Below are positions 2,389 to 44,406 of a stretch of 44,954 nt of DNA, one piece after another. Position 1 is the stretch's first letter, and every line of letters starts with the position of its first letter. Below the pieces are notes generated by a model that made no database searches, was not told where the DNA came from, and saw nothing but the letters and a program-made list of their open reading frames with translations. The DNA comes from a phage: the sequence record OZ503098.1. One strand, given 5' to 3'. Both the position numbers and the translations under genes were made by a program.

Positions 2389-2943
2389 TTATTTAAGTGC
2401 GCTTTGTACCAGTGTTTTTTCCATGTTGCGGAAGTCTTCCGGCGTCATGAGGATTTTGGATCCGTCTTCGCCGGTGAGCACGACCAAAGGCTGGACGTCT
2501 TGACCCGCAATGCCGAAATCGCGGGCCTTAACAGTCTCGCCGAACGAGGCTACCGTGTCCTCTGCAACGCGAATGGCGCTGTTATACGCATTAATTTCAC
2601 CGTCGAGACGCACGGACAGGCCTTTTAGGCTGTCGAATTGTGCTGCCGTTGTATCGATCTGAATCTCGTCATGTACGGTCATGTAAGACTCGCCCAGCAG
2701 GGCGGCATACGCCACCAGGTCCACGATATTATCTTCCTGGTGCTTACGGTGCTGGCGAACCAGCTTCAGGCAGATCAGGAAGGTCCAGGCTTCTTGCTCG
2801 GTAAGGTCGCGACCGGTAAGCGCGTTAAACACGGCAGCGATTTGTTTAGCGCTGCGTTCTTCTTTCGCGTTGTCATAGCCATTTTCTTTCCCGCGCTGTT
2901 CCATAGTGGTAGCGGCGTTTTTGCAGTATTCGTATGCTTTCAT
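2389..2943 (-). CDS. Hypothetical protein (184 aa)
   Basis: Internal ATG at 2943 with AAGGAAAA RBS chosen over the longer ORF start at 3069, which would overlap the upstream gene; no recognisable catalytic motif. Confidence 0.5.
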   Translation of the reverse strand: MKAYEYCKNAATTMEQRGKENGYDNAKEERSAKQIAAVFNALTGRDLTEQEAWTFLICLKLVRQHRKHQEDNIVDLVAYAALLGESYMTVHDEIQIDTTAAQFDSLKGLSVRLDGEINAYNSAIRVAEDTVASFGETVKARDFGIAGQDVQPLVVLTGEDGSKILMTPEDFRNMEKTLVQSALK

Positions 2944-3005
2944 TATGTTTTCCTTTTTAGCGGGGGCGGTATTGCCCCCGACGTGATTAAGATACTGCAA
3001 CCAAC

Positions 3006-3476
3006 CTATTGGTTGCAAGTGAATTTTGCAACGTTTATCGCATAAATTTTCGGGACCAGATCGCCGCACGCCCGACGAATTGCCGCGATGTTCTTCGGAC
3101 AGTCTTCAATGATGACCAGTTCCGACACGTCCGCATAGCAGACCATTTTGAACACGGCGCACGCCTTAAACTCTGGTGGCGGGGTGTCGTCCAGCATGTG
3201 GCGCATAAACAACCGGCCTGCCGGGAAGACCTCCAATTGCTTGGCGGTGGTGTCCCAACATTCTAGCTGCCGGTTGGTCAGATACGCGATCTCGAAGCCT
3301 TGCTCTTTGTACATGCGCAACAGCGGCAGCATATCCATGTTCAGGTCTTCGCGTACATGCGCTTTGTGCCACTTTGCCCAAAAGGTTGATTTCGTTTTTA
3401 TCCCCGGCACCAGGTCGGCACGCGCATCGCTTGAACCGTTAATAACGCCATCCAAATCGCAAATAAGTAATTTCAT
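3006..3476 (-). CDS. HAD-superfamily phosphatase/nucleotidase-like protein
   Basis: N-terminus MKLLICDLDGVI contains the HAD motif I (DxDG[TV]); 156 aa. Confidence 0.55.
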   Translation of the reverse strand: MKLLICDLDGVINGSSDARADLVPGIKTKSTFWAKWHKAHVREDLNMDMLPLLRMYKEQGFEIAYLTNRQLECWDTTAKQLEVFPAGRLFMRHMLDDTPPPEFKACAVFKMVCYADVSELVIIEDCPKNIAAIRRACGDLVPKIYAINVAKFTCNQ

Positions 3477-4648: not shown

Positions 4649-4677
4649 AATATAATGCAACCAATCTAATTATGCAA
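4649..4677 (-). promoter_or_regulatory. Sigma70-like promoter built from two direct ATTGGTTGCAT copies (TTGCAT, 17 bp spacer, TATATT); a GC hairpin (4626-4646) lies in the leader
   Basis: Minus-strand reading: ATTGGTTGCATaattagATTGGTTGCATTATATT; the first copy supplies the -35 and the -10 follows the second copy after a 17-nt spacer. Confidence 0.35.
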
Positions 4678-5005
4678 CCAATTTACGAATAAAATTTGGG
4701 TCGCGTGCAACGTCTACCAGATACAGGTTACTAATGCGGTTGCCGTAGTGCCCTGGTGTGCGCTGGCGGCACACAACGGCGAAGCCGGGAGGGATTGTAT
4801 TGCCAGTCTCGATAATCCACGCTACGCGCGCGCCAGATAGCGTCTTGCCGTTGCACTCGATGCGCGTGCCGCCATCGGCAGTGTTGAGGTTGCCAATCTT
4901 ACATCCGGTGGACTTCAGGCGAATGACGCCGGTCTTGCTGTCGTAGGAGAATAACTGGTTAGTCATTGCAACCGAAAAATCAATGGCCTCGAATGTAGTA
5001 TTCAT
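4670..5005 (-). CDS. HNH-like endonuclease (degenerate) / hypothetical protein
   Basis: 111 aa; FSYDSKTG...NGKTLSGARVAWIIETG...GHYGNRISNLYLV follows the layout of small free-standing phage HNH proteins; catalytic residues are not all canonical. Start overlaps the stop of the upstream gene. Confidence 0.4.
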   Translation of the reverse strand: MNTTFEAIDFSVAMTNQLFSYDSKTGVIRLKSTGCKIGNLNTADGGTRIECNGKTLSGARVAWIIETGNTIPPGFAVVCRQRTPGHYGNRISNLYLVDVARDPNFIRKLVA

Positions 5006-7558: not shown

Positions 7559-7598
7559 CTCTAAAATCCTCGATATGGCTAACCGGCACACTATACCG

Positions 7599-7877
7599 CT
7601 ATGCGACCAATTCAGCAACCAATAAATCACAGTCGGCGATGTTGTCTATGACGCGAACGTCCGCACCGCGGCGGGCCATCCGCTCATGCTCGCGTACCTG
7701 GTGCGGCTTCGGTTTTCCGCCGGGGCGCTTCACTTCGACGAACACTATTTTGCCGTTGATGATGATAATCAGATCGGGCGCACCCGCGCGCCCCTCCCAG
7801 GCCATTTTGCGGCAGAATCCGCCTACCTCTTTCACCCGTCGCATCAGGTGACTTTGAATCTTGCCTTCTGGTGTCAT
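7599..7877 (-). CDS. VRR-NUC domain nuclease
   Basis: APDLIIIINGKIVFVEVKRPGGKPKPHQ matches the VRR-NUC PD-(D/E)xK core (D...E-V-K); ATG 7877 abuts the upstream stop. Confidence 0.6.
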   Translation of the reverse strand: MTPEGKIQSHLMRRVKEVGGFCRKMAWEGRAGAPDLIIIINGKIVFVEVKRPGGKPKPHQVREHERMARRGADVRVIDNIADCDLLVAELVA

Positions 7878-11849: not shown

Positions 11850-11939
11850 TTTCCAATTCCTCATTTTCACATGTATCGGGGTTATTGGAAGCCACCCCGT
11901 TCGGCTTGGTTGCTAATCTACTTGGTTGCGCCTGAGCGG

Positions 11940-12182
11940 TCAAGCATTTTCGTTAAAAAGATTTCGGGTAACGTAGTTGGTAGCGTTCTCGATCCAGCTT
12001 AGCGGCGGTCGGTCGATGTTCTTTTCCACCCAATCGACGGCAACTTCGCTATAGCCGTCATCCAGCCAGCGGGTCGGATGGCGAATCATCCACGCCACCA
12101 TTAACACGCCTTGCACGCAATGCAGGATAAAGCCCAGCGCGCCGAGCAAAAACATCAATAAGATTGCGAATACTTTATTCAT
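11940..12182 (-). CDS. Small membrane protein (80 aa)
   Basis: Two hydrophobic segments (FAILLMFLLGALGFIL and VLMVAWMI); starts 2 nt after the upstream stop. Confidence 0.45.
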   Translation of the reverse strand: MNKVFAILLMFLLGALGFILHCVQGVLMVAWMIRHPTRWLDDGYSEVAVDWVEKNIDRPPLSWIENATNYVTRNLFNENA

Positions 12183-14769: not shown

Positions 14770-15033
14770 GGTATATCTCCGATTGGTTAAGTTTGGCGTC
14801 CGGGCGGTATGCCCGGTCGACGAGGGAGATATTAGATTGGTTGCAGAAGGGAGTCAACAACTAATTTCAAAAAAAAGCGCCGAGGCAAAATGCAACGGCG
14901 CTAACCAATAAGAGACAATGAGACGGGAATTATTATTACACGCGTGCGCGCCCGTTTCAATATTCCAAAGAAGTTGACACCCTACGGTTTTAGGTGTAGT
15001 TTCGTTGGTCATTAACCAACCGAGGACAGAGCA
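14770..15033. promoter_or_regulatory. Divergent early control region: leftward promoter (about 14932-14960, TTGAAA-17-AATAAT on minus), rightward promoter (about 14974-15002, TTGACA-17-TAGTTT), leader hairpins at 14800-14816 and 14867-14902
   Basis: Only place where the two strand blocks diverge; consensus TTGACA -35 on plus; back-to-back -35 elements 14 bp apart flanking palindromic ACGCGT/GCGCGC words; minus-strand hairpin AGCGCCG...CGGCGCU followed by U8. Confidence 0.5.
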
Positions 15034-15363
15034 ATGAATGTAAACGACGCAATCGAAATGTTAACGAAGACTGTTAGCAGTGAAACAAGCCGGTCATGGG
15101 CGTATACCGATGCCGTGGGTGCGGTGCTATTTGAAATCGAACGTCTGCGACTTACCGAAAAAGAATTGCGCGCGAAGCTGGAATTACTCAACGGTACTGC
15201 AGCAAGCAAGCTGCAAAAGCACAATGAAGAAATGGAAGAATACAAAAAGCAGGTTATCCGTTTGCGCGCCGAGGGCAAATCCTGGGCGATGATTGCCGAG
15301 TTGACCGGAATTAATCAGAGCACTGTGCGCTCCTGGGTGCGCAATAATAAAACTTCCAAATAA
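15034..15363 (+). CDS. Helix-turn-helix DNA-binding regulator (sigma-70 region 4 / LuxR-type HTH at the C-terminus)
   Basis: C-terminal RAEGKSWAMIAELTGINQSTVRSWVRNN is a typical HTH (region-4-like); N-terminal coiled-coil-like segment; GAGGA RBS; first gene of the rightward block. Confidence 0.6.
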   Translation: MNVNDAIEMLTKTVSSETSRSWAYTDAVGAVLFEIERLRLTEKELRAKLELLNGTAASKLQKHNEEMEEYKKQVIRLRAEGKSWAMIAELTGINQSTVRSWVRNNKTSK

Positions 15364-15367
15364 GGCT

Positions 15368-17638
15368 ATGACCATGAGTTTAATTAAATTCGCAGTAACA
15401 AGACCCGCTAAAAAAGGCGAAAAAGCCAGGGCGGAAAACTTCCAGATGACCACCGATGAATTTTTCGAATTTATCAAAGATGCGAAAGAAATCTCCTCGG
15501 TGCATATCAATAAGACGGAAGATAAAGCCGAGTATGCGCGCCGCAAGCGTAAGGCCGATGGCATCGTGGCATATACCAGTGACGGCCTTCGCCGCAAGAC
15601 CAGTGCGGTGGACCGCTCGATCCTGTTCTTCGATATTGACCGTACCGACACCCGCACCCTACGCCGCTGCCGTAAGGCGTTCATTGACGCGGGTCTGGAA
15701 CACGTATTTCACACCACAACCGGCGACCGTCACCCACTGAAAGGAGGCACGCGTTGCGCCCGTTTCCTGGTGTTAACTGACAAGCCTGTACCGGCTGAAG
15801 ACCTGGGCCGCGTCCAGTATGCACTATTACACCAACTGGGTCTGTCAGATGTGGACTTCGACGATTGCACGAAAGACACAAACCGCCTGATGTACCTGCC
15901 TCACCAGCAGTCTGTTATTAAGTGCCACTACGGCAAGCGCGCCCGCGTCCGCCGTCTGCTCCGCCTGGCTGATAAGCTGGGAGTTGAGAAAGAGGAAGTA
16001 CGCCGCGAGCTTACCCAGGGCGACGACGCAGTGGCAGACGGCATTCTGGACTGGTGCTTCCAGGCAGGATTCGAGGAGTTATCTTCCGGGCGGGGCTTTG
16101 AAGTGCCGTGCCCGAACGAACATCTGCACAGCGGCGAAGGGTCGACGGCTATCATGGTCAAGGATGGCGAGATCCGTTTCAAGTGTATGCACACCGGCAA
16201 CGAGTGTTGCTCTGAACTGAATAGACACCAACACCTGGCGCTACGTCTTATCGGCATCCCGGACCACCTGAACGTCGAGCCACACAATATGTCCCGTAAG
16301 CAAATCGCCGCCATCCTTCCGGGGCTGGACGACGAGGAAGTCGAATCCTTATATGAACATATTGTTGATGCGGTTGGCGACGGCGAAGAATACGGCGTGT
16401 GCACCGATGCGGATCTGGATAACGAGCCGGTCGCGCTGTTCAGTAAGCACGACACGATTATCGAGGGGTTGATTAACTTTAAATCGACCTGGTACATGGC
16501 GGGTGAGTCGAATATCGGTAAGTCTTTCTATGTGCTGGGCCAAATGGGCGCGGTTGCCGCCGGTATTCCGTTTGGTGGTGCGAAGGTCGTCCAGTCTCAT
16601 TGCTTCTATTTCGACGCGGAAGGTGGCGAAGCCTCCAACCAGCGTAAAGAAGCATTGCAGATTAAATACGAGCACGACCTGGACAAGCTGCACATTATAG
16701 ACCTGCAGTCACGCGGCTGGGATATCACCAGCAAGTCCGGCTTGCGCGAAGTTATCAGTTTTATCAACCGCACCGCTAACGGCGAGCCGGTTGGCCTGGT
16801 GGCGTTCGACTCACTCAACCAGACTGTTGCGTTGCGGTCCGCCGAGGCTAAACCGTTCGACGAGAACAACGCCAGCGATATGGGCGAAGTGGTCAAAGCG
16901 CTGAAGGCCATCGCGGAAAACACAGGTGGCAGTGCGGGCGTCATTCACCACCCGGCGAAAGGTGCAAACGGCAGCAGAACCCCACGCGGGTCCGGCGCGC
17001 TGCATGGTGCTGTCGATTCCGCTTTCTTCCTGGAACAGCCGGACGACAACCAGCCCGGACAATTGAACCTGTATCACGAAAAGTCACGTAACGGCATCAA
17101 GCAAGCGCCGCGCGGCTTCGTCCTGCTCAAGTGCAAAGTTAAGGTGGATCTCCGCAAGTCAGAAGCGTTCGAGGCGCACCAGTCCACCAGCACCGGGCCA
17201 GACTTCGGGGATGTGGTTGCCGGTTGGGACGTCAAGCCGATCGCCTCCACGCCACGCGACGAGACTCTCTACCTCGTACCGGTTGCCCTGGCACCGTTCG
17301 CTATTGAACAGGCGAAGGCGGCAGGCAAGGCCGCGGTTAAGGAAGAGAACACCGCCGGACCGCGCAACGGAAAAGAGAAAGTGCTTTATGCTGCACTGGA
17401 AAAACTGATGGAAGATAACCCGGACCATACTGGATTCAGTAAATCGGCGATTGTCCGCCAGGCGGGACTCGCGAAAGGTGGCACGTCGACGAAGGCAATC
17501 GACGATATGGTGGAGCGCGGCGTGATAGGTTTTTACACCGATCCGCACACCGGGGCCATCTATGGGTCGTCTAATTTGGTCATCAAATCGGATATCCCAA
17601 TCACGCTTTCAGCGACCGATGAAGACTTAAAAGATTAA
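15368..17638 (+). CDS. Primase-helicase: archaeo-eukaryotic-type primase-like N-terminal domain fused to a RecA-like P-loop NTPase
   Basis: N-terminal LFFDIDRTD (acidic DxD-type motif), central Cys/His cluster (CPNEHLHSGEG...CMHTGNECC), C-terminal Walker A GESNIGKS and Walker B-like LVAFDSL. Confidence 0.7.
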   Translation: MTMSLIKFAVTRPAKKGEKARAENFQMTTDEFFEFIKDAKEISSVHINKTEDKAEYARRKRKADGIVAYTSDGLRRKTSAVDRSILFFDIDRTDTRTLRRCRKAFIDAGLEHVFHTTTGDRHPLKGGTRCARFLVLTDKPVPAEDLGRVQYALLHQLGLSDVDFDDCTKDTNRLMYLPHQQSVIKCHYGKRARVRRLLRLADKLGVEKEEVRRELTQGDDAVADGILDWCFQAGFEELSSGRGFEVPCPNEHLHSGEGSTAIMVKDGEIRFKCMHTGNECCSELNRHQHLALRLIGIPDHLNVEPHNMSRKQIAAILPGLDDEEVESLYEHIVDAVGDGEEYGVCTDADLDNEPVALFSKHDTIIEGLINFKSTWYMAGESNIGKSFYVLGQMGAVAAGIPFGGAKVVQSHCFYFDAEGGEASNQRKEALQIKYEHDLDKLHIIDLQSRGWDITSKSGLREVISFINRTANGEPVGLVAFDSLNQTVALRSAEAKPFDENNASDMGEVVKALKAIAENTGGSAGVIHHPAKGANGSRTPRGSGALHGAVDSAFFLEQPDDNQPGQLNLYHEKSRNGIKQAPRGFVLLKCKVKVDLRKSEAFEAHQSTSTGPDFGDVVAGWDVKPIASTPRDETLYLVPVALAPFAIEQAKAAGKAAVKEENTAGPRNGKEKVLYAALEKLMEDNPDHTGFSKSAIVRQAGLAKGGTSTKAIDDMVERGVIGFYTDPHTGAIYGSSNLVIKSDIPITLSATDEDLKD

Positions 17639-17719
17639 TTTTTGCGCGCATTGGTTGCCAAATTGCGTGCTTTTAGGTGGTCGTATTGGTTGCCGTGTAG
17701 TGTAAATATAGTGAATAGT

Positions 17720-17905
17720 TATGCAATAAAACTGCATAAACTAAGCGGGACAAAAAGCGGGACAGACAGGAGGCGGGACAAAGCGGGACAGCACCCCTGT
17801 CCCGCCCCGGATGACGCGGCCTGGCGAGGAGCGGGACAGCGGGACAGCACCCCAGTCTTTCAGACTAGACGGGGGGTCTGGCACCCCCCTCGTCTGAGAC
17901 TGCAT
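17720..17905. repeat. Iteron/hairpin array 1: at least six direct GCGGGACA copies, inverted TGTCCCGC copies and a G6/C6 hairpin, preceded by TGCATAAA
   Basis: GCGGGACA at 17745, 17757, 17773, 17783, 17831, 17839; inverted copy at 17798; AGTCTTTCAGACT palindrome and GACGGGGGG-tctggca-CCCCCCTCGTC hairpin at 17853-17895. Non-coding (the TTG-start ORF 17642..17998 is rejected). Confidence 0.7.
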
Positions 17906-18061
17906 AAAATCCGGGATTGCATAATACACGGCAACATGATGCAAATTGCGGTCGTCGGTGAACTAGGCAACCAATGCGAGTTGCAGAATGGTGGGTGAAA
18001 AATGCAGTTTGCAGTCACAGCAGATAGCGATCGACTTTTTCATACGCGTGATTAATATTGG

Positions 18062-18090
18062 TTGCACCCGCCCTGGCACCCTGCTATATT
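18062..18090 (+). promoter_or_regulatory. Sigma70-like promoter TTGCAC-17-TATATT embedded in two ATTGGTTGCAC motif copies, upstream of gene 18119
   Basis: -35 TTGCAC 18062-18067, 17-bp spacer, -10 TATATT 18085-18090; motif copies at 18057-18067 and 18088-18098. Confidence 0.45.
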
Positions 18091-18118
18091 GGTTGCACAC
18101 CAACATGAGGACTGAACA

Positions 18119-18421: not shown

Positions 18422-18691
18422 ATGGACCGCAGACGCGCTAAACGGCTTTCGTGGCATATTCCACTGCATTGCATACGAATATGGGCTAAGAATGCGAATG
18501 AGGGCGATTCTGTGTTCTGGTGCTATCGCGACGATGTGAAGCCACTAACGCAGACTCGCTACTTGCACCAGTTCGCCAGGGAGCATGGGTTAGCCATAAA
18601 AACGTCCTTGCAACCAATTGGCATTCGTATTACATTACGCCGGAAGCCCACCGTTGAGCGGGTAGGTAAACACTGGAGACTGAGCAAATGA
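18422..18691 (+). CDS. Hypothetical protein (89 aa)
   Basis: ATG with AAGGGG RBS. Confidence 0.5.
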   Translation: MDRRRAKRLSWHIPLHCIRIWAKNANEGDSVFWCYRDDVKPLTQTRYLHQFAREHGLAIKTSLQPIGIRITLRRKPTVERVGKHWRLSK

Positions 18692-19791: not shown

Positions 19792-19808
19792 TTATGCAAG
19801 CGTGATAT

Positions 19809-21074: not shown

Positions 21075-21104
21075 TTGACTCGCAACCAACATAGGGGCCA
21101 TACT
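21075..21104 (+). promoter_or_regulatory. Promoter-like element TTGACT-18-CATACT overlapped by two (T)GCAACCAA(T) motif copies
   Basis: Motif copies sit in the spacer and at the start site, i.e. operator-like placement; precedes a strong GGAGGAG RBS. Confidence 0.35.
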
Positions 21105-21133
21105 GCAACCAATCAACTGGAGGAGTAATCAAG

Positions 21134-27426: not shown

Positions 27427-27580
27427 CCCGTCCGCAGACCCCGACGAGGATTTGATGATTGACGTGAAAAATATGGAATGCGGGGCGAAGCTAAGGGCGC
27501 AGGTGCTGGAGTTGCAGCAAATAATTAAGGGCCGTAATGGCCCCCTTTTCGTTAGCGCGGAATACCGCAAATCTCGTTGA
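27308..27580 (+). CDS. Putative o-spanin (Rz1-like outer-membrane lipoprotein), overlapping the i-spanin gene in the +1 frame
   Basis: ATG 27308 with AAAGAGG RBS; signal peptide with lipobox MLRALTALIVVLMLSACGSS; Pro-rich mature part; 90 aa. Confidence 0.5.
   Translation: MLRALTALIVVLMLSACGSSNVPLMPLTESALRPPCKFDSPSADPDEDLMIDVKNMECGAKLRAQVLELQQIIKGRNGPLFVSAEYRKSR
27529..27551. terminator. Bidirectional hairpin at the convergence of the o-spanin gene and the minus-strand moron
   Basis: GGGCC-gtaat-GGCCC followed by CCTTTTCGTT on plus and by UUAAUUAUUU on minus. Confidence 0.4.
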
Positions 27581-28316
27581 GAGTTTTCACATCCAGCGCC
27601 ACCGCCGTGGATTTTGGCTTGTCCGGGTAAGGGATGAATTGCTCAACTTCAGGCCATGCCTTAATCAGCTTCTTGTCAGTATTGTGCAGGTCCAGCACAC
27701 CGGTAACGGTCAACTTGAACGCGTCATACTTAGCCCGCAACTCACGGCGGGCCTTGTCGTTACGGTCCAGGCGCTTACAGAAATCATGATCCGCCGGGAA
27801 ATCCGCACGGCAGTGTGGCTTATAGATCGGCAGCGCTTTCCCGTCCTCGTCCACTTCGCACACTGACGCGAGCATAACTTCTTCAAACCCCGGTACGATA
27901 TCGCCTAAATCGGGGGATAGCTTATTCATGTATTTATATTCCCAGCATCCGCGATGTACGCGGTATTGGCGACCGTCACCGCTCAAGGATAAGGTGCGAA
28001 CATTTCCGCCTGCGTTGATTTCGAAAGTGGCGTCGTAAACGCTGCCGATACCTTTCGGGCGGTCGGCGTTATAACGATATGTCGCCTTGTTGGTGTATAC
28101 ACAGACGCCGTACATCTGCGACGGGTCATCGCCGATTGCTTCAATGTGCGCGAGTAGCTCGGCGAACGTGCGAATGCCTTCCGGCATACAGTCCAGCGTA
28201 ATGGCATAAGCCAGGTCGCGCGAGTCCATCATGATTTGTTTGGCTTCGGTTGCGATTTCGTGGTCGCGCAGGATGTTAGCCAGAATCTGATTTTTAATGT
28301 CTTTAGTAAGTCTCAT
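27552..28316 (-). CDS. Opposite-strand moron: hypothetical protein (254 aa) of unknown function
   Basis: Only minus-strand gene inside the 15-43 kb plus-strand block; ATG 28316 with GAGGA RBS; own promoter-like element upstream and hairpin downstream; Cys/His-containing (HRGCWEYKY, KPHCRADFPADHDFCKR) but no motif I can name. Confidence 0.55.
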   Translation of the reverse strand: MRLTKDIKNQILANILRDHEIATEAKQIMMDSRDLAYAITLDCMPEGIRTFAELLAHIEAIGDDPSQMYGVCVYTNKATYRYNADRPKGIGSVYDATFEINAGGNVRTLSLSGDGRQYRVHRGCWEYKYMNKLSPDLGDIVPGFEEVMLASVCEVDEDGKALPIYKPHCRADFPADHDFCKRLDRNDKARRELRAKYDAFKLTVTGVLDLHNTDKKLIKAWPEVEQFIPYPDKPKSTAVALDVKTLNEICGIPR

Positions 28317-28345
28317 TTTTGTGTCCTCGTTGTTGGTGTGCAACC

Positions 28346-28375
28346 AATATATTGCAACCAATACCCGGATTGCAA
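28346..28375 (-). promoter_or_regulatory. Promoter for the moron: TTGCAA-18-TATATT on the minus strand, overlapping two ATTGGTTGCA copies
   Basis: Minus-strand reading: TTGCAAtccgggtATTGGTTGCAaTATATTGGTTGCAC; same architecture as the 18062-18090 promoter. Confidence 0.4.
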
Positions 28376-28382
28376 GCGAATT

Positions 28383-28410
28383 TTGCGATTATTTTTATCA
28401 CTGATAATAT
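28383..28410 (+). promoter_or_regulatory. Promoter-like element TTGCGA-16-TGaTAATAT upstream of the scaffold gene
   Basis: Extended -10-like TGATAATAT at 28402-28410; divergent from the moron promoter. Confidence 0.3.
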
Positions 28411-33576: not shown

Positions 33577-33890
33577 TTGAGGCGGCGCGACGCTTTTATG
33601 GCCCGCCGCCACCCTCCGAAGATTTAGCCGCAAGTTTATGGGGTGCGGCCCCCGAAGATGTTTGCCCGCCGGTTGCACTATGGCCCGACAATGCGAAGGT
33701 AGTCGCAGTCTTCACGGATTGCGCCACGCAATGGCGTACCGGATTCGGTGGCGCATACGGCATCGACTACGGCGTACTGGAATGGTTATTTAATATGCAC
33801 GGCATCGAAAACGCGCAACGTGCGTTTAAAGATATCAAGCTAATGGAACGCGTTGCGCTGGATGAAATGGCGCGGCAGAACCCCGCATAA
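33214..33890 (+). CDS. Tail assembly chaperone frameshift fusion product (gpGT-like) made by -1 frameshifting at 33567-33573
   Basis: The -1 frame is open from the slippery site A_AAA_AAC (33567-33573) to TAA 33888-33890, 107 codons translated by hand with no stop; canonical arrangement upstream of tape measure genes. Confidence 0.5.
33567..33573 (+). other. Slippery heptanucleotide A_AAA_AAC for programmed -1 ribosomal frameshifting
   Basis: Codons GAA AAA AAC TAA in the zero frame; a -1 shift gives AAA AAA CTA ATT GAG and onward. Confidence 0.5.
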
Positions 33891-34215
33891 CGGAGCGGGA
33901 CAGGCGGGACGTCCCGTTTTGTCCCGCACCTCTAAAACTGCATATTTACTCACCACAATTGCATAAATCAAAAGCGGGACAGGGGTGCTGTCCCGATCTG
34001 TCCCGCCCCCAAAATGTGAATGTCTATTCAGTTTTATTGCATAAAGTAAGCGGGACAAAAAGCGGGACAGAATGAGGCGGGACAAAGCGGGACAGCACCC
34101 CTATCCCCGCCAGTGCTGCCGCGGGTTTTAGCCGATCGGGACAGGCGGGACAAAGCCCAGTCTTTCAGACTAGACGGGGGTCAATGGCCCCCCTCGTCTG
34201 AGACTGAATAAGGTT
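33891..34215. repeat. Iteron/hairpin array 2 (expanded copy of array 1) inserted between the chaperone and tape measure genes
   Basis: GCGGGACA/TGTCCCGC copies at 33895, 33904, 33926, 33975, 33991, 34002, 34051, 34063, 34079, 34089 and 34153 (approximate); block 34048-34107 nearly identical to 17742-17802; hairpin block 34157-34215 nearly identical to 17850-17905; TGCATAA words at 33939, 33960, 34038, 34251. Confidence 0.7.
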
Positions 34216-34274: not shown

Positions 34275-36917
34275 ATGGCAGATCAGGCAGCGGGCATCAC
34301 GCTCAAGGCGGACGTCGCGCAAATTAAAACGGCTAATACTGTGCTGGACACATTTGCGCAGAAATCCGAGAACACAGAACAGAAAGTCAAAAAATTAAAC
34401 GACACCCTCGGCAAGTCGAAAAAGGTCACGGGTGACGCCGCTGGCGGAATGGAAAAGTTAGCGACTGAATCTCAGCGTGCCGCCGACGGCATGACGAAAC
34501 AGGAGCGACTCGCCAGCCGATTAGGCATGTCGACCAAAAACCTGGGATTCGCATCGCGGAACGCCGCATTCCAGTTACAGGATATCGCGGTTACGCTTGA
34601 GATGGGTATGCCGGTGCACCGCGTCATGCTTCAGCAGCTACCACAGCTAACCGGCGCATTTGGCGGACTGGGTAACACGCTGCGTTATGTTGCAGGCTTC
34701 CTCGGCCCAGTAGGGATCGGACTTGCTGCCGTAACGGCGACGTTAGGCGTGGGCGTGGCAATTACGTCACGGGCAGAGAACCAGGTAGCCGCGCTTAATA
34801 AGACGCTGGCGCTGTCCGGTAATATCTCCGGCCTCACAGCTAACCAGATCCTGGTGCTGTCCGAGAACGCCGAGCGCATGGGCGGGTCTTTTCGCAAGAC
34901 GCGTGACACAATCCAGGCACTGGCGGCGGCTGGTGTGAAAGCGGGTGGTGACTTCGGCGCATTGGCTAAGGTAGTTAATGACTTTGCGAAGGTGTCCAGC
35001 CAGCCGATCGAGGATGTGGTGGCGGCGGTGGCTAAGCTGTCAACCGACCCCGTTGGCGGACTGCGTGCGCTGGCGGATAAGTATCACGTCGTAAACGAAG
35101 CGCAGATCCAGCAGGTACAGTCGCTCGTTGATGCGGGTCGTGAGACAGACGCAGTTGCGTTGGCTAACAAAACAGCCGCTGCGTCGTTCACCAGCATGAC
35201 CAATGAAATCAAGTCCAACATGGGTACGCTTGAGCGGTCGATGAACGTCGTCACATCGGCAGCTAAATCTATGTGGGATGCCATCCTGGATGTGGGCCGC
35301 GCGCAGTCCTCGAATGAGTCAGAGATGAAAGCGCGTGAGTCATTGCAGCGCATGACCACGGCTTATTATGCCGAGATGAAAGCGGTAAACGCTGCCGGTG
35401 GGGTAATGACTGAAGCGCAGAAAGCACGTATTAACATGCTTTACAGCGAACTGGTCGCCCAGGAAAAAGTGGTGGCATCGCTCACCCTGCGTAACCGTGC
35501 TGAGCGAGACAACGCCCGCGCCGCAGACGAATCCGCAAAGGCGAACGAGGAGGCCAACCGCACTGCCCGTGACCGCGCCGCGTTCGAGAAGGAATACGCC
35601 ACCAACGCTAAGAAACGCGCCGACGAGATCGCCCGTCTCAATTTGCTGAATAAGCGCGGCGTTATCGACGAGAAAGAGCTTGCCGAGGCGGTGAAGCAGG
35701 TAAACGAGCGGTACAAAGACCCCGCCCCGAAGAAGGCCGCGGCTGTTCGCGTGGACGCCGGTATGAAAATGCTGGAAGTTGCACGGAGCGAACTGGCCCA
35801 GCTTCGAGAATCCGGCAAGCAGATCGAAGCCAACGCGTCTACGCAGACCCGCACGCAACGCGCTCAAGCGGCCTTAAACAAGCTGATCGCCGACAATGAG
35901 CAGTTAATCGCTGCGAGCAAAGAAAGAGCGCTAACGGCAGCAGAAAAGCAGCAGATGGTCGAATTCGGACGCGTGAAGGAAGTGCGCGAGCAGATCGTCG
36001 AAGAAGCCAAATTGCTGGACGCGAAAGAGAAGCAGGTTAAGGCGCACGCGCAGATCGATGCCTTCGTTAAGAACCAGAACGCCGAACTAAAAGCCACCGC
36101 CGCGGGGTATGCGCTTTCCACTCGCGAAGCGGCAAACCTGCGCGAAGAATTGCAGCTAATTGACCGCCTGAAGCGGGTTGGCGCTAACGATACCGATATT
36201 GACAAGGCGGTGTCTAAGCTGCGAGAAGTGCAGGAAGCACAGACCGGCGCTAACGCCTCGTTATGGGATGGATTCAGTCGCGGGCTTAAAGATAGCGTGG
36301 ATGAAATGGGTAACGGATATACGCAGATGGCGTCGCTCACGAAATTCACATTCAGCGCTATGCAAGACACGATGAACGAGTTTTTCGAGACTGGCAAGCT
36401 GAACGCAAAGGATATGGTTAAATCCATCCTGAGCGAACTAATCAAGCTGGCTACCTCGCAGGCGTTCAAGTCCATCGTTAGCGCTTTCGGTGGCGACGGC
36501 GGCAAAAACGGATTGTTCGGCGCTATATTCTCTGGCCTCACTAAGAATGCGGACGGCGGAGCGTACGCAGGAGGCAATCTCGCGGCCTATTCGGGGAAAG
36601 TCGTAAGCCAGCCTACCTTTTTCAGTTATGGCGTCCAGGCGTTCGCTAAGGGCGCGGGGTTGATGGGGGAGGCGGGACCCGAGGCCATCATGCCACTGAA
36701 GCGCGGGCCAGACGGAAAACTGGGCGTTGCCGCGTCTGGCGCAGGCGGTGGTATGGTCGTGACGACTAACGTTTACACGGGGACCGGTAAAACGGATACC
36801 AGTGTCAGCGGGCCGGATCCCCGTACCGCGCAGGCGTTCGGCAAGCAAATCACCGAGGCGGTGAAGGCCGAGATCGTGAAGGCGACGAAACCGGGTGGTG
36901 TACTTTACAAACGATGA
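34275..36917 (+). CDS. Tail tape measure protein
   Basis: 880-aa ORF with AGGGGGA RBS; long helical, Ala/Gln/Lys/Glu-rich middle and Gly-rich C-terminus; position after G/GT. Confidence 0.8.
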   Translation: MADQAAGITLKADVAQIKTANTVLDTFAQKSENTEQKVKKLNDTLGKSKKVTGDAAGGMEKLATESQRAADGMTKQERLASRLGMSTKNLGFASRNAAFQLQDIAVTLEMGMPVHRVMLQQLPQLTGAFGGLGNTLRYVAGFLGPVGIGLAAVTATLGVGVAITSRAENQVAALNKTLALSGNISGLTANQILVLSENAERMGGSFRKTRDTIQALAAAGVKAGGDFGALAKVVNDFAKVSSQPIEDVVAAVAKLSTDPVGGLRALADKYHVVNEAQIQQVQSLVDAGRETDAVALANKTAAASFTSMTNEIKSNMGTLERSMNVVTSAAKSMWDAILDVGRAQSSNESEMKARESLQRMTTAYYAEMKAVNAAGGVMTEAQKARINMLYSELVAQEKVVASLTLRNRAERDNARAADESAKANEEANRTARDRAAFEKEYATNAKKRADEIARLNLLNKRGVIDEKELAEAVKQVNERYKDPAPKKAAAVRVDAGMKMLEVARSELAQLRESGKQIEANASTQTRTQRAQAALNKLIADNEQLIAASKERALTAAEKQQMVEFGRVKEVREQIVEEAKLLDAKEKQVKAHAQIDAFVKNQNAELKATAAGYALSTREAANLREELQLIDRLKRVGANDTDIDKAVSKLREVQEAQTGANASLWDGFSRGLKDSVDEMGNGYTQMASLTKFTFSAMQDTMNEFFETGKLNAKDMVKSILSELIKLATSQAFKSIVSAFGGDGGKNGLFGAIFSGLTKNADGGAYAGGNLAAYSGKVVSQPTFFSYGVQAFAKGAGLMGEAGPEAIMPLKRGPDGKLGVAASGAGGGMVVTTNVYTGTGKTDTSVSGPDPRTAQAFGKQITEAVKAEIVKATKPGGVLYKR

Positions 36918-43140: not shown

Positions 43141-43165
43141 TTAAAGCCCCGCAAGGGGCTTTAAT
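43141..43165. terminator. Bidirectional hairpin between the J-like gene (+) and the convergent minus-strand cassette
   Basis: AAAGCCCC-gcaa-GGGGCTTT palindrome between stop 43138 (+) and stop 43161 (-). Confidence 0.45.
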
Positions 43166-44096
43166 ACATGTTGGGGAGGTACGGCAGCGGAGTTGGTATT
43201 GTAACGTCGGGTCTGTTGCCGATTTCGTACCTTACAATTCGTGAGCCAGTTCCAGACCTTACATATCCGCCGCTCATAACCACGCCTTTGTTTCTTAGTT
43301 CCTTGTAGGCGGGTATAGCCCTTGTATTGAACCCACACCGTAGAATTGGGAAGTAGGAGTCACCAATATACTGATTGCTACCTGACAGACTTATAAACCC
43401 AGACACAATAAGGGGTCTGGTAACTGTTGAAAGTGTACAGGCGCCGTTGCGGTTAAATATGTTTAACCCTGGCCCCGGCACGGGCGCAACCATCTGGAAA
43501 ATAACCAAATCCATAGTAACACTTCCGGGTGTGTGCCCTGTATCATTTGTGTTTATGTTTGTGCATATCAACCGATTAACGCCGTCGTACTCAACTGAAA
43601 CACCAGAATTATCCCACCTGCCGAAAGGTATGCCGTATATTGGAAGGGTGTAACTATCATGGAATGAAATAGTTTGAGCAAATTTGCAGATAAGCAACCT
43701 GTCAGTTGTGGTTATCGAGGTGAAATCCGTGCTGTCGGCAACGTAAAGCCCCTGTCCTGTCGATGCTCTAAGAACCTCAACTACAGTACCCGAAAACTGC
43801 GTTACGCGGTCTGGATAACCGTTCTCATAGCCAATAGATATTGTTCCACTGGATGCTGTTGAAGAAAAGCCCTTTATATAATAAACCTCAACACCACGAT
43901 CTAGTTCGAATGAGTATGCGCCATTGTTCGGCAGAAGAAACCTCGAAGCCCCTTCATTACCTTGAATAGGGAATGACTTGCTAAACCCGCCACTTGAAAC
44001 ATTGAAGTTCCCCGCAAAATTCAAGGCACGCATACCCGCGGTGATTATCATCGGGTTGCGTCCGTCCTTAAGATCAATGTAGATACCTTGCGCCAT
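43161..44096 (-). CDS. Hypothetical protein (311 aa), second gene of a reverse-strand two-gene cassette
   Basis: ATG 44096 overlaps the stop of the upstream lipoprotein gene (TAATG); Gly/Ser/Thr-rich, beta-rich composition; no signal peptide recognised. Confidence 0.5.
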   Translation of the reverse strand: MAQGIYIDLKDGRNPMIITAGMRALNFAGNFNVSSGGFSKSFPIQGNEGASRFLLPNNGAYSFELDRGVEVYYIKGFSSTASSGTISIGYENGYPDRVTQFSGTVVEVLRASTGQGLYVADSTDFTSITTTDRLLICKFAQTISFHDSYTLPIYGIPFGRWDNSGVSVEYDGVNRLICTNINTNDTGHTPGSVTMDLVIFQMVAPVPGPGLNIFNRNGACTLSTVTRPLIVSGFISLSGSNQYIGDSYFPILRCGFNTRAIPAYKELRNKGVVMSGGYVRSGTGSRIVRYEIGNRPDVTIPTPLPYLPNMY

Positions 44097-44326
44097 TAGT
44101 TCCACTCCCGAGAGCCATAATCACGAACTGAGCCACCATGCCCTTTAATTCCGTCATAACGAATATCAACTTCACCCGCCGGAACAACTACACCGCCTTT
44201 CCATTTAGCCACACATACGCCGCTTGCTTGCGTCGCGCACCAACCATCCGTACGCGGGCCAGAAGAGCAACCAACAGCCATGACTACTAACGCGGCAATG
44301 ATTGCGGATTTGATTAAAGTTTTCAT
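44096..44326 (-). CDS. Small lipoprotein (76 aa): candidate receptor-masking / superinfection-exclusion factor
   Basis: ATG 44326 with AGGAG RBS; signal peptide with lipobox [23 protein letters not shown]; several Cys in the mature part; lies between tail tip and tail fibre genes on the opposite strand. Confidence 0.55.
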
Positions 44327-44356: not shown

Positions 44357-44385
44357 AGTATTACACCGCTCAATCAAGAATGCAA
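44357..44385 (-). promoter_or_regulatory. Promoter for the lipoprotein cassette: TTGCAT-17-TGtAATACT on minus, with -35 inside an ATTGGTTGCA motif
   Basis: Plus-strand TGCAACCAAT at 44381-44390; minus-strand reading ATTGGTTGCATtcttgattgagcggTGtAATACT. Confidence 0.4.
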
Positions 44386-44406
44386 CCAATTTAAGAGGAT
44401 TTAGCT

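Follow-up and report, generated by a model that had tools for sequence, protein, structure and literature searches.

What is a perfect palindrome doing across the stop codon of a phage gene? The sequence record OZ503098.1, whose 44,954 bp we refer to throughout as the window, comprises the whole genome, in circularly permuted form, of a Dhillonvirus, one of the HK578-like virulent siphoviruses that infect E. coli. The question arises at positions 2996–3017, where the gene for a HAD-like phosphatase ends. The 9-mer TGCAACCAA, which we call motif M, occupies positions 2996–3004, and its exact reverse complement TTGGTTGCA follows at 3009–3017, with only CCTA between the two. We argue here that the palindrome is probably the core, from the -35 hexamer into the spacer, of an internal σ70-type promoter, P_D, as judged from sequence comparison. 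Our explanation as a whole, which we hold with slightly better than even confidence, is that this promoter core contains two independent operator units, that a Cro-like repressor is their probable reader, and that the inverted geometry of the two units is incidental.

Results and Discussion

The Palindrome and the Predicted Promoter P_D

The palindrome is real and non-random. The window has just three perfect inverted repeats that combine arms of 9 nt or more with a short loop, and this is one of them; four of its nine stem pairs are GC, and its 4-nt spacer encloses the TAG stop codon of the phosphatase open reading frame (ORF), the product of which ends in C-N-Q; the codons for these three residues are themselves part of the upstream M copy. 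In the IMG/VR database, the exact palindrome was found in Dhillonvirus contigs only, the sole further hit being an unrelated terminator, rich in AT, on a contig of 211 kb. A preliminary description of this locus had placed the pair over the phosphatase stop codon, just upstream of gene 2389–2943 and beside a GGGGGC-ggtatt-GCCCCC hairpin at 2962–2979, all of which we confirm, with the hairpin conserved among relatives. The same description held this to be the only tight inverted pair of the motif, which is correct for the full 9-mer but not for partial forms, as three elements of the type TTGGT-N5-ACCAA lie elsewhere (15005–15019, 18089–18103 and 28333–28347).

What had been missed is that the palindrome coincides with the -35 region and spacer of a predicted σ70-type promoter, the -10 hexamer of which adjoins it immediately. 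Read along the minus strand, the predicted promoter and leader consist of GCAAAATTCAC (upstream element), TTGCAA, CCAATAGGTTGGTTGCAG (18-nt spacer), TATCTT, AATCACGTC, GGGGGCAATACCGCCCCC, GCTAAAAAGGAAAACATA and ATG, with a predicted start site at ~2982, such that one arm of the palindrome overlaps the -35 hexamer and extends four bases beyond it while the other fills the spacer beside the -10 hexamer (Table 1). The hexamers are separated by a distance within the usual 16–18 nt, and in the window they match the consensus at 8 of 12 positions; the HK578 homologue of P_D, TTGCAA-18-TATAGT, matches at 9 of 12 and was flagged by our consensus scan. Across 17 aligned relatives, both M copies and both hexamers are kept and the 7–9 nt after the -10 hexamer drift, the variant TATCTT being common to the window and phiEco273 only. 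Thus, conserved hexamers with drifting flanks stand upstream of a gene with a ribosome-binding site, and we infer promoter activity from this pattern. The LM40P1 genomes lack the phosphatase gene, yet keep the two-copy promoter ahead of the DUF6378 gene. If active, P_D would restart leftward transcription for the last two leftward genes, 2389–2943 and 1771–2346.

The closest paralogue of P_D in the window is P_G, the promoter of the Nmad5 gene. Its core (28375..28346) matches P_D element by element, as GCAAAATTCGC TTGCAA TCCGGGTA TTGGTTGCA A TATATT, and the two share the column pattern GCAAAATTCRC-TTGCAA-N8-TTGGTTGCA-N-TATNTT. The likeness extends upstream of the -35 hexamer, where the element GTTGCAAAATTCACTTGCAAC of P_D is homologous to GCAAAATTCGCTTGCAA at ~28370–28390. 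We note that the Nmad5 gene itself (nucleotide-modification-associated; 27552–28316, minus strand; Pfam E = 1e-58) lies on the opposite strand within the structural module, where it has this M-type promoter of its own.

Table 1. Positions in the Window of the Palindrome, the Elements of P_D, the Other M Promoters, and Associated Features
Feature	Position	Strand	Remarks
HAD-like phosphatase gene	3006..3476	-	3′ end overlaps promoter P_D
Upstream element GTTGCAAAATTCACTTGCAAC	3012..3032	-	a further inverted repeat, overlapping the first, within the end of the HAD coding sequence
Predicted -35 hexamer TTGCAA (P_D)	3018..3013	-	4/6 to consensus; from alignment of 17 relatives
Upstream M copy (TGCAACCAA on minus strand)	3009..3017	-	5′ part plus base 3018 form the -35 hexamer
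TAG stop of HAD-like gene	3006..3008	-	palindrome loop; not essential, lost by loop flip in L017 and L019
Downstream M copy (TTGGTTGCA on minus strand)	2996..3004	-	closes the 18-nt spacer on its 3′ side, 1 nt short of the -10 hexamer
Predicted -10 hexamer TATCTT (P_D)	2994..2989	-	relatives nearly all TATAGT or TATATT
GC stem-loop GGGGGC-aauacc-GCCCCC	2962..2979	-	begins about 3 nt after the predicted start; without U-tract
Ribosome-binding site AAGGAA (2955..2950) and ATG (2943..2941)	2941..2955	-	DUF6378 gene
DUF6378 gene, 184 aa	2389..2943	-	first gene that P_D would serve; ATG at 2943; gene 1771–2346 next
P_A, early leftward	14829..14857	-	TTGACT-17-TAATAT, M in spacer; annotated promoter in HK578
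P_B	11906..11943	-	TTGACC-17-TAGATT; one M in spacer, one at about -5..+3
P_C	4649..4681	-	TTGGTTGCAt-aattaga-TTGGTTGCA-t-TATATT
P_E	7590..7623	-	-35 TTGCTG from M, variant ATTGGTCGCA in spacer, -10 TATAGT; overlaps 3′ end of VRR-NUC gene
P_F	18058..18103	+	-35 TTGCAC from M, -10 TATATT with TG, second copy over -9..+1
P_G (Nmad5 gene)	28333..28375	-	TTGCAA-18-TATATT; one M abuts the -10 hexamer, one over the start site
P_H	18608..18636	+	TTGCAA(CCAAT)-17-TACATT; M supplies the -35, as in P_D
21075 promoter	21075..21113	+	TTGACT-18-CATACT; M just after the -35 and at -7..+3
P_lipo	44357..44389	-	-35 TTGCAT from M, 17-nt spacer, TGt-AATACT extended -10; lipoprotein and DUF6453 genes
Late extended -10 elements	19803 (holin), 21234 (metallophosphatase), 22470 (terminase), 34230 (tape measure), 36915 (minor tail), 44326 (fiber)	+	
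Candidate M-binding protein, 109 aa	15034..15363	+	first gene of the rightward early operon

Motif M across the Genome

The arrangement at P_D is one instance of a genome-wide pattern. The 9-mer occurs 12 times in exact form where 0.43 occurrences are expected, a count reached in none of 100 shuffled sequences, and its 8-mer core GCAACCAA occurs 22 times where 2.0 are expected, again reached by no shuffle. Of the 22 core sites, 16 are located between -40 and +5 of a conserved promoter-like element and three fall inside genes, about as many as chance would give. In total, M is present in about ten conserved promoters, in either orientation, where it supplies the -35 hexamer, fills the spacer next to the -10 hexamer, or covers the start site (the region -9..+3, at four promoters). 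At P_A, P_B, P_C, P_D and P_G, the 9-mer ends 1–2 nt before the -10 hexamer, and a -10-like hexamer begins within 0–3 nt after the 9-mer in 7 of 44 site orientations, against a background of 4.9%. P_C carries two reverse copies, the first giving the -35 hexamer TTGCAT and the second abutting the -10 hexamer, followed by a hairpin and T-run; both P_C and P_G place M as in the downstream copy of P_D. The second copy of P_F belongs to one of the TTGGT-N5-ACCAA elements, and the 21075 promoter serves a small ORF and the metallophosphatase gene.

Conservation follows the same lines. Columns within M are 97.3% identical across relatives, compared to 86.7% for other intergenic columns, in a comparison the cells of which are not phylogenetically independent, and GCAACCAAT is retained at the corresponding promoters of two more distant relatives, L020 and L021. 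On the evidence of this conservation, the repeated motif is very probably a unit recognized by a protein. The earlier view that the site is regulatory in nature is supported.

We also tried and rejected three other roles for the motif. M is not the -35 element of every site, as a -10 hexamer at a distance of 16–18 nt follows it in P_D, P_H and a few reverse copies only. A σ54 (-24/-12) reading of TTGGTTGCA fails by inspection, since its GG is not 11–12 nt upstream of a GC, and M is not an origin iteron, the putative origin having GCGGGACA iterons of its own. Our literature search found no paper describing motif M, Dhillonvirus promoters, or the promoters of HK578 or SSL-2009a.

Separately, we observe that each of the three TTGGT-N5-ACCAA elements (at 15005, 18089 and 28333) is located between a -10 hexamer and a GAGGAC ribosome-binding site, ahead of the helix-turn-helix gene at 15034, gene 18119 and the Nmad5 gene, respectively. 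These elements may represent either another operator geometry or a small hairpin of the 5′ untranslated region.

Proposed Regulation through Motif M and a Candidate Regulator

Whether M is the operator of a phage-encoded DNA-binding protein is, on the evidence of enrichment, position and conservation, a proposition to which we assign about even chances. If it is, each M copy at P_D would act as an independent unit, one giving the -35 hexamer and the other filling the spacer up to the -10 hexamer, and the protein would occupy the core of about ten early or middle non-structural promoters, most likely turning them down in the way that Cro does in λ. The arrangement of the sites suggests a repressor operator rather than an activator site, because M lies within the polymerase footprint, both orientations are tolerated, the start site is covered at four promoters, and the hexamers appear adequate unaided. 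The distribution of the motif points in the same direction: the genes behind M promoters are non-structural throughout (replication, recombination, methylases, Nmad5, the metallophosphatase, and the lipoprotein with DUF6453), whereas the holin, terminase, tape-measure, tail and fiber genes have TGnTAnnnT elements without M.

We tentatively propose as the M-binding protein the 109-aa product of 15034–15363, which gives Pfam matches to HTH_23, HTH_28 and Sigma70_r4_2. Its AlphaFold model (mean predicted local distance difference test score, pLDDT, of 86.6) has a 59-residue helix (residues 21–79) followed by the helix-turn-helix, and a coiled-coil dimer of this type with tethered helix-turn-helix heads would explain paired sites of variable spacing and orientation. 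Residues 47–106 are invariant across all 15 aligned homologues, with a variable N-terminus. In L020 and L021, the protein is 59–65% identical overall with an invariant recognition helix, and M is kept there too, such that the co-variation comparison in distant relatives returned invariance on both sides. Sequence and fold searches with this protein yielded only generic helix-turn-helix matches (resolvase, LuxR/GerE, DeoR), with E above 0.07 bar its own orthologue, and Pfam scans of 26 phage proteins detected no DNA-binding domain other than the one in 15034–15363. Downstream of the gene's own -10 hexamer lies M or an M-like element, TTGGT-N5-ACCAA in the window and an exact GCAACCAAT in L021, which suggests autoregulation as in λ Cro.

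An alternative would have M as a positive specificity element through which an early phage protein activates middle promoters from within the core promoter, in the manner of T4 MotA or λ CII. M does set apart a single class of genes and is found neither at the late extended -10 promoters nor at PL2, the helix-turn-helix of the candidate protein resembles σ70 region 4, and in many M promoters the only -35 hexamer is a TTGCAN derived from M itself. We nevertheless consider activation unlikely, given that four promoters have M over -9..+3, that M occurs in both orientations at the same position, and that P_A, P_B and the 21075 promoter combine good TTGAC(T/C) -35 hexamers with 17–18-nt spacers and should fire unaided.

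The preference for promoter P_D with repressor-bound units must itself be weighed against a number of points. The P_D hexamers of the window, at 8 of 12, lie below the threshold of the consensus scan and so went unflagged, and recognizable promoters are lacking at three M copies (17651, 17686 and 17967) in the vicinity of the putative origin. The position of M relative to the -10 and -35 hexamers varies among promoters, while a single steric mechanism is assumed, and an activator may bind inside a core promoter, as λ CII does. The 15034–15363 protein adjoins the helicase-primase gene and could instead bind the GCGGGACA iterons, which are equally conserved. Finally, a literature search for Dhillonvirus transcript, start-site or protein-binding data found none.

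Geometry of the Paired Sites among Relatives

The preliminary description saw in the palindrome the geometry of a site for a dimeric repressor or activator. In its strict form, this would be a dyad-symmetric operator, the two arms of which are bound as a unit by a rigid dimer and the geometry of which is under selection. The perfect 9 + 9 arrangement with its 4-nt spacer invites this reading, the inverted form is the majority among relatives (roughly 130–140 of ~156 phage records), and the long helix in the model of the candidate protein would suit dimerization. However, these genomes are very close relatives, at least 90% identical, such that the majority may reflect shared ancestry, and the same promoter occurs in other geometries: 13 records (slur06, slur05, TH11, McMelon and others) have the direct repeat TTGCAACCAAtaaTGCAACCAAcTATATT, and the three LM40P1 records without the phosphatase gene have the opposite direct repeat TTGGTTGCAatccgtatTTGGTTGCAcTATATT. 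TTGCAA at -35 is constant across these variants, as are a 9-mer in contact with it and another that stops 1 nt short of the -10 hexamer, in either orientation. In the paralogous P_G, that position holds a single copy, and at other promoters M pairs are spaced by 9, 12, 13, 14, 16, 17, 23, 31 or 35 bp in both relative orientations, rather than as inverted half-sites at a fixed, conserved spacing.

Such variation at a single promoter argues both against a rigid dimer site and against a function of the palindrome as a hairpin, and we regard the dyad-symmetric operator as quite unlikely. On sequence grounds, the inverted geometry at 2996–3017 appears to be incidental, the palindrome being a by-product of two repeat units in one promoter. 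The earlier interpretation thus stands in part: its regulatory site ahead of the last leftward genes is retained, and its dimer-site geometry is not.

A further rearrangement is seen in L017 (9284–9383) and L019 (10450–10549), in which the palindrome loop is inverted (CCTA in gene orientation) and the TAG stop is deleted. The flipped loop is the footprint of a palindrome-mediated inversion, and the phosphatase ORF gains about 17 codons from it, running on across both promoter and hairpin.

RNA Structure and the Leader Hairpin

A structural role, in which the palindrome serves as a terminator, an attenuator, a stabilizer of the 3′ end of the phosphatase transcript, or a cruciform site for recombination, is in our estimate very unlikely, in spite of some suggestive features. 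RNA reading through from the phosphatase gene would contain the palindrome hairpin and then the GC hairpin, both of which fold (minimum free energy -29.4 kcal/mol, z = -4.0), and the flipped loop of L017 and L019 is a signature of hairpin-mediated inversion. In addition, comparable stem-loops in T4-like phages work as terminators (PMC2839356), and gene insertions in McMelon lie beside the GC hairpin. Against this, no U-tract follows the palindrome arm on the transcribed minus strand (the tail is GUAUCUUAAU in the window and CUAUAGUAAA in relatives), nor the GC hairpin (tail GCUAAAAAGG), and the terminator scan flagged the palindrome on the untranscribed plus strand only. The direct-repeat variants are unable to fold the palindrome hairpin, yet keep both M copies. 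We therefore rejected the palindrome as a terminator on the basis of the missing U-tract and these variants. This last argument concerns the palindrome only, and the GC hairpin may well attenuate read-through.

The GC hairpin is conserved as a structure. It folds in all 15 sequence variants, with free energies of -8.5 to -18.5 kcal/mol, and its arms change in coordination to give 4, 5 or 7 pairs (for example, GGGAGGC/GCCUCCC). As it is separated from the predicted start site by no more than ~3 nt, it would stand at the 5′ end of the new transcript, and it is possible that it acts as a stabilizing 5′ stem-loop or as an attenuator of read-through. An Rfam 15 scan of the window and HK578 gave no match at the gathering score.

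The ATTGGT sequence within M resembles the half-site bound by PdhR and LldR, two GntR-family regulators of E. coli, and there are cassette-type indels at M promoters, but it is most improbable that M is read by a host factor or is a mere recombination linker homogenized among cassettes, with no dedicated phage protein, because the window contains no TTGGT-N3-ACCAA (the only spacings being N5 and everted N4, for which reason a PdhR/LldR-type box, ATTGGT-N3-ACCAAT, was rejected), and because the 9-mer is more tightly conserved than the surrounding promoter DNA, also in distant relatives, a degree of conservation that a patch of homology would not need.

Two Predicted Promoter Classes and Neighboring Genes

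The rightward late genes are preceded by extended -10 elements (TGnTAnnnT, called at five or more of six matches), which have neither M nor a -35 hexamer (Table 1). Several of these overlap or abut a hairpin and T-run just before the ATG, forming composite terminator–promoter units.

Near P_A, a second early leftward promoter, TTGAAA-17-AATAAT with TG, is found on the minus strand at 14960..14932 (region 14862–14960), and a strong terminator, GCGCCG...CGGCGC with T8, follows ~70 nt later. Together they imply that the early transcript is short, being a small RNA or carrying the 36-aa ORF of the Oekolampad annotation. Most relatives have a conserved insert of ~170 nt between P_A and the first leftward gene (HK578, L003, at ~35190–35365; also L001, L004 and L005), for which there was no Rfam match; it is absent from the window, where a CCGGGC...GCCCGG hairpin takes its place.

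Gene calls in the window were transferred from phiEco273 and Oekolampad. Over 20 kb, the identity of the window is 90–93% with phiEco273, welsh, SO-1 and some 150 further records. The leftward genes, for DNA metabolism, run from 14769 down to 1771. Rightward, the helix-turn-helix gene at 15034 is followed by the helicase-primase gene (15368–17638), small genes, lysis genes and structural genes up to 43138, after which come two leftward genes at 43161–44326 and a fiber gene that occupies 44407 to the window end and continues up to 1745. The product of ORF 3006–3476 was assigned as HAD-like: it has an N-terminal DLDGV motif and matches PHROG 415, "polynucleotide kinase" (E = 1e-35), and, weakly and below the curated cutoff, Pfam Acid_phosphat_B (E = 1e-4).

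The 480-bp non-coding gap after the helicase-primase gene contains at least seven GCGGGACA(G/A) iterons (17711–17890), including the palindrome CGGGACAGCACCCCTGTCCCG, and this array is likely the replication origin. The iteron element has a second copy at ~33750–34000, in the interval that separates the tail chaperone gene from the tape-measure gene; its palindrome is at 33975–33995. Such a two-site layout recalls the ori and crr of satellite phage P4.

Relation to Known Regulatory Systems

The closest described architecture is the PeSL (promoter-early stem-loop) cassette of the T4-like phages RB49 and phi1 (Arbiol et al. 2010, PMC2839356; Comeau et al. 2014, PMC4122927), in which a σ70-like promoter is repeated between genes with a polyG/polyC stem-loop located between, over or just after its hexamers (PMC2839356). 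In these T4-like genomes, the stem-loops terminate transcription and recombination between cassettes yields mini-circles (PMC2839356). Both PeSLs and the units described here may extend over the preceding gene's stop codon, both finish with a ribosome-binding site and ATG, and both are tied to the gain or loss of small genes. In the window, a promoter with an adjacent G-run/C-run stem-loop is found at many intergenic sites: P_A, P_B, P_C and P_D have a GC hairpin 2–16 nt after the -10 hexamer, and the late extended -10 elements at 19803, 21234 and 36915 overlap hairpins. Small genes are likewise gained and lost between close relatives, in McMelon and after P_C and P_F. The units differ from PeSLs in belonging to a small siphovirus rather than a T4-like myovirus, in the lack of a U-tract after the P_D hairpin, for which a terminator role is putative, and in carrying within the core promoter a non-hexamer 9-mer in either orientation, which has no described PeSL counterpart.

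We observed the following gene insertions. McMelon (L023, 446–781) has an extra 111-aa gene between the phosphatase and DUF6378 genes, flanked by duplicated AACCACATC-GGGAGGC...GCCTCCC. Extra small genes are also found right after P_C in L004, L010, L012 and L017, and after P_F in L003 and L004.

With λ Cro, the proposed system would share a small helix-turn-helix protein whose gene opens the rightward early operon, and multiple operator copies, here putative, that overlap the -35 hexamer, spacer and -10 hexamer of divergent early promoters, as at OR and OL. The Cro operators, however, are 17-bp pseudo-palindromes of fixed geometry at two loci, whereas M, a 9-mer that has no dyad symmetry, varies in orientation and spacing over about ten promoters; the candidate protein, whose binding is predicted, has no sequence or fold relationship to Cro. 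The T4 middle promoters (MotA/AsiA) are similar in that a phage-specific element replaces or accompanies the -35 hexamer in one temporal class, with another class depending on -10-only or extended -10 recognition, independent of σ region 4. In contrast to M, the MotA box has a fixed position (about -30) and one orientation, and Pfam scans of phage proteins detected no MotA or AsiA homologues.

Conclusions

What is new at this locus is an orientation-free 9-mer inside a core promoter, for which there is no described counterpart. It is possible, if rather doubtful, that it forms part of a two-class program of the Dhillonviruses, in which a single early coiled-coil and helix-turn-helix protein with flexibly tethered DNA-binding heads would read the one or two M copies within the polymerase footprint of each of about ten promoters, in any orientation or spacing, and shut them all, possibly being titrated by replication, while the late genes, with their M-free extended -10 promoters, would escape, with the promoter cassettes doubling as recombination linkers. 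Dhillonviruses (HK578, SECphi4, SECphi18 and several BASEL phages) are in wide use for phage-defense and therapy work. If our reading is true, it would provide a map of Dhillonvirus promoters and their two classes, a specific candidate regulator–operator pair, and compact, orientation-tolerant operator units usable for engineering these phages, and it would extend the idea of promoter/stem-loop cassettes as gene-shuffling units from T4-like phages to a small siphovirus.

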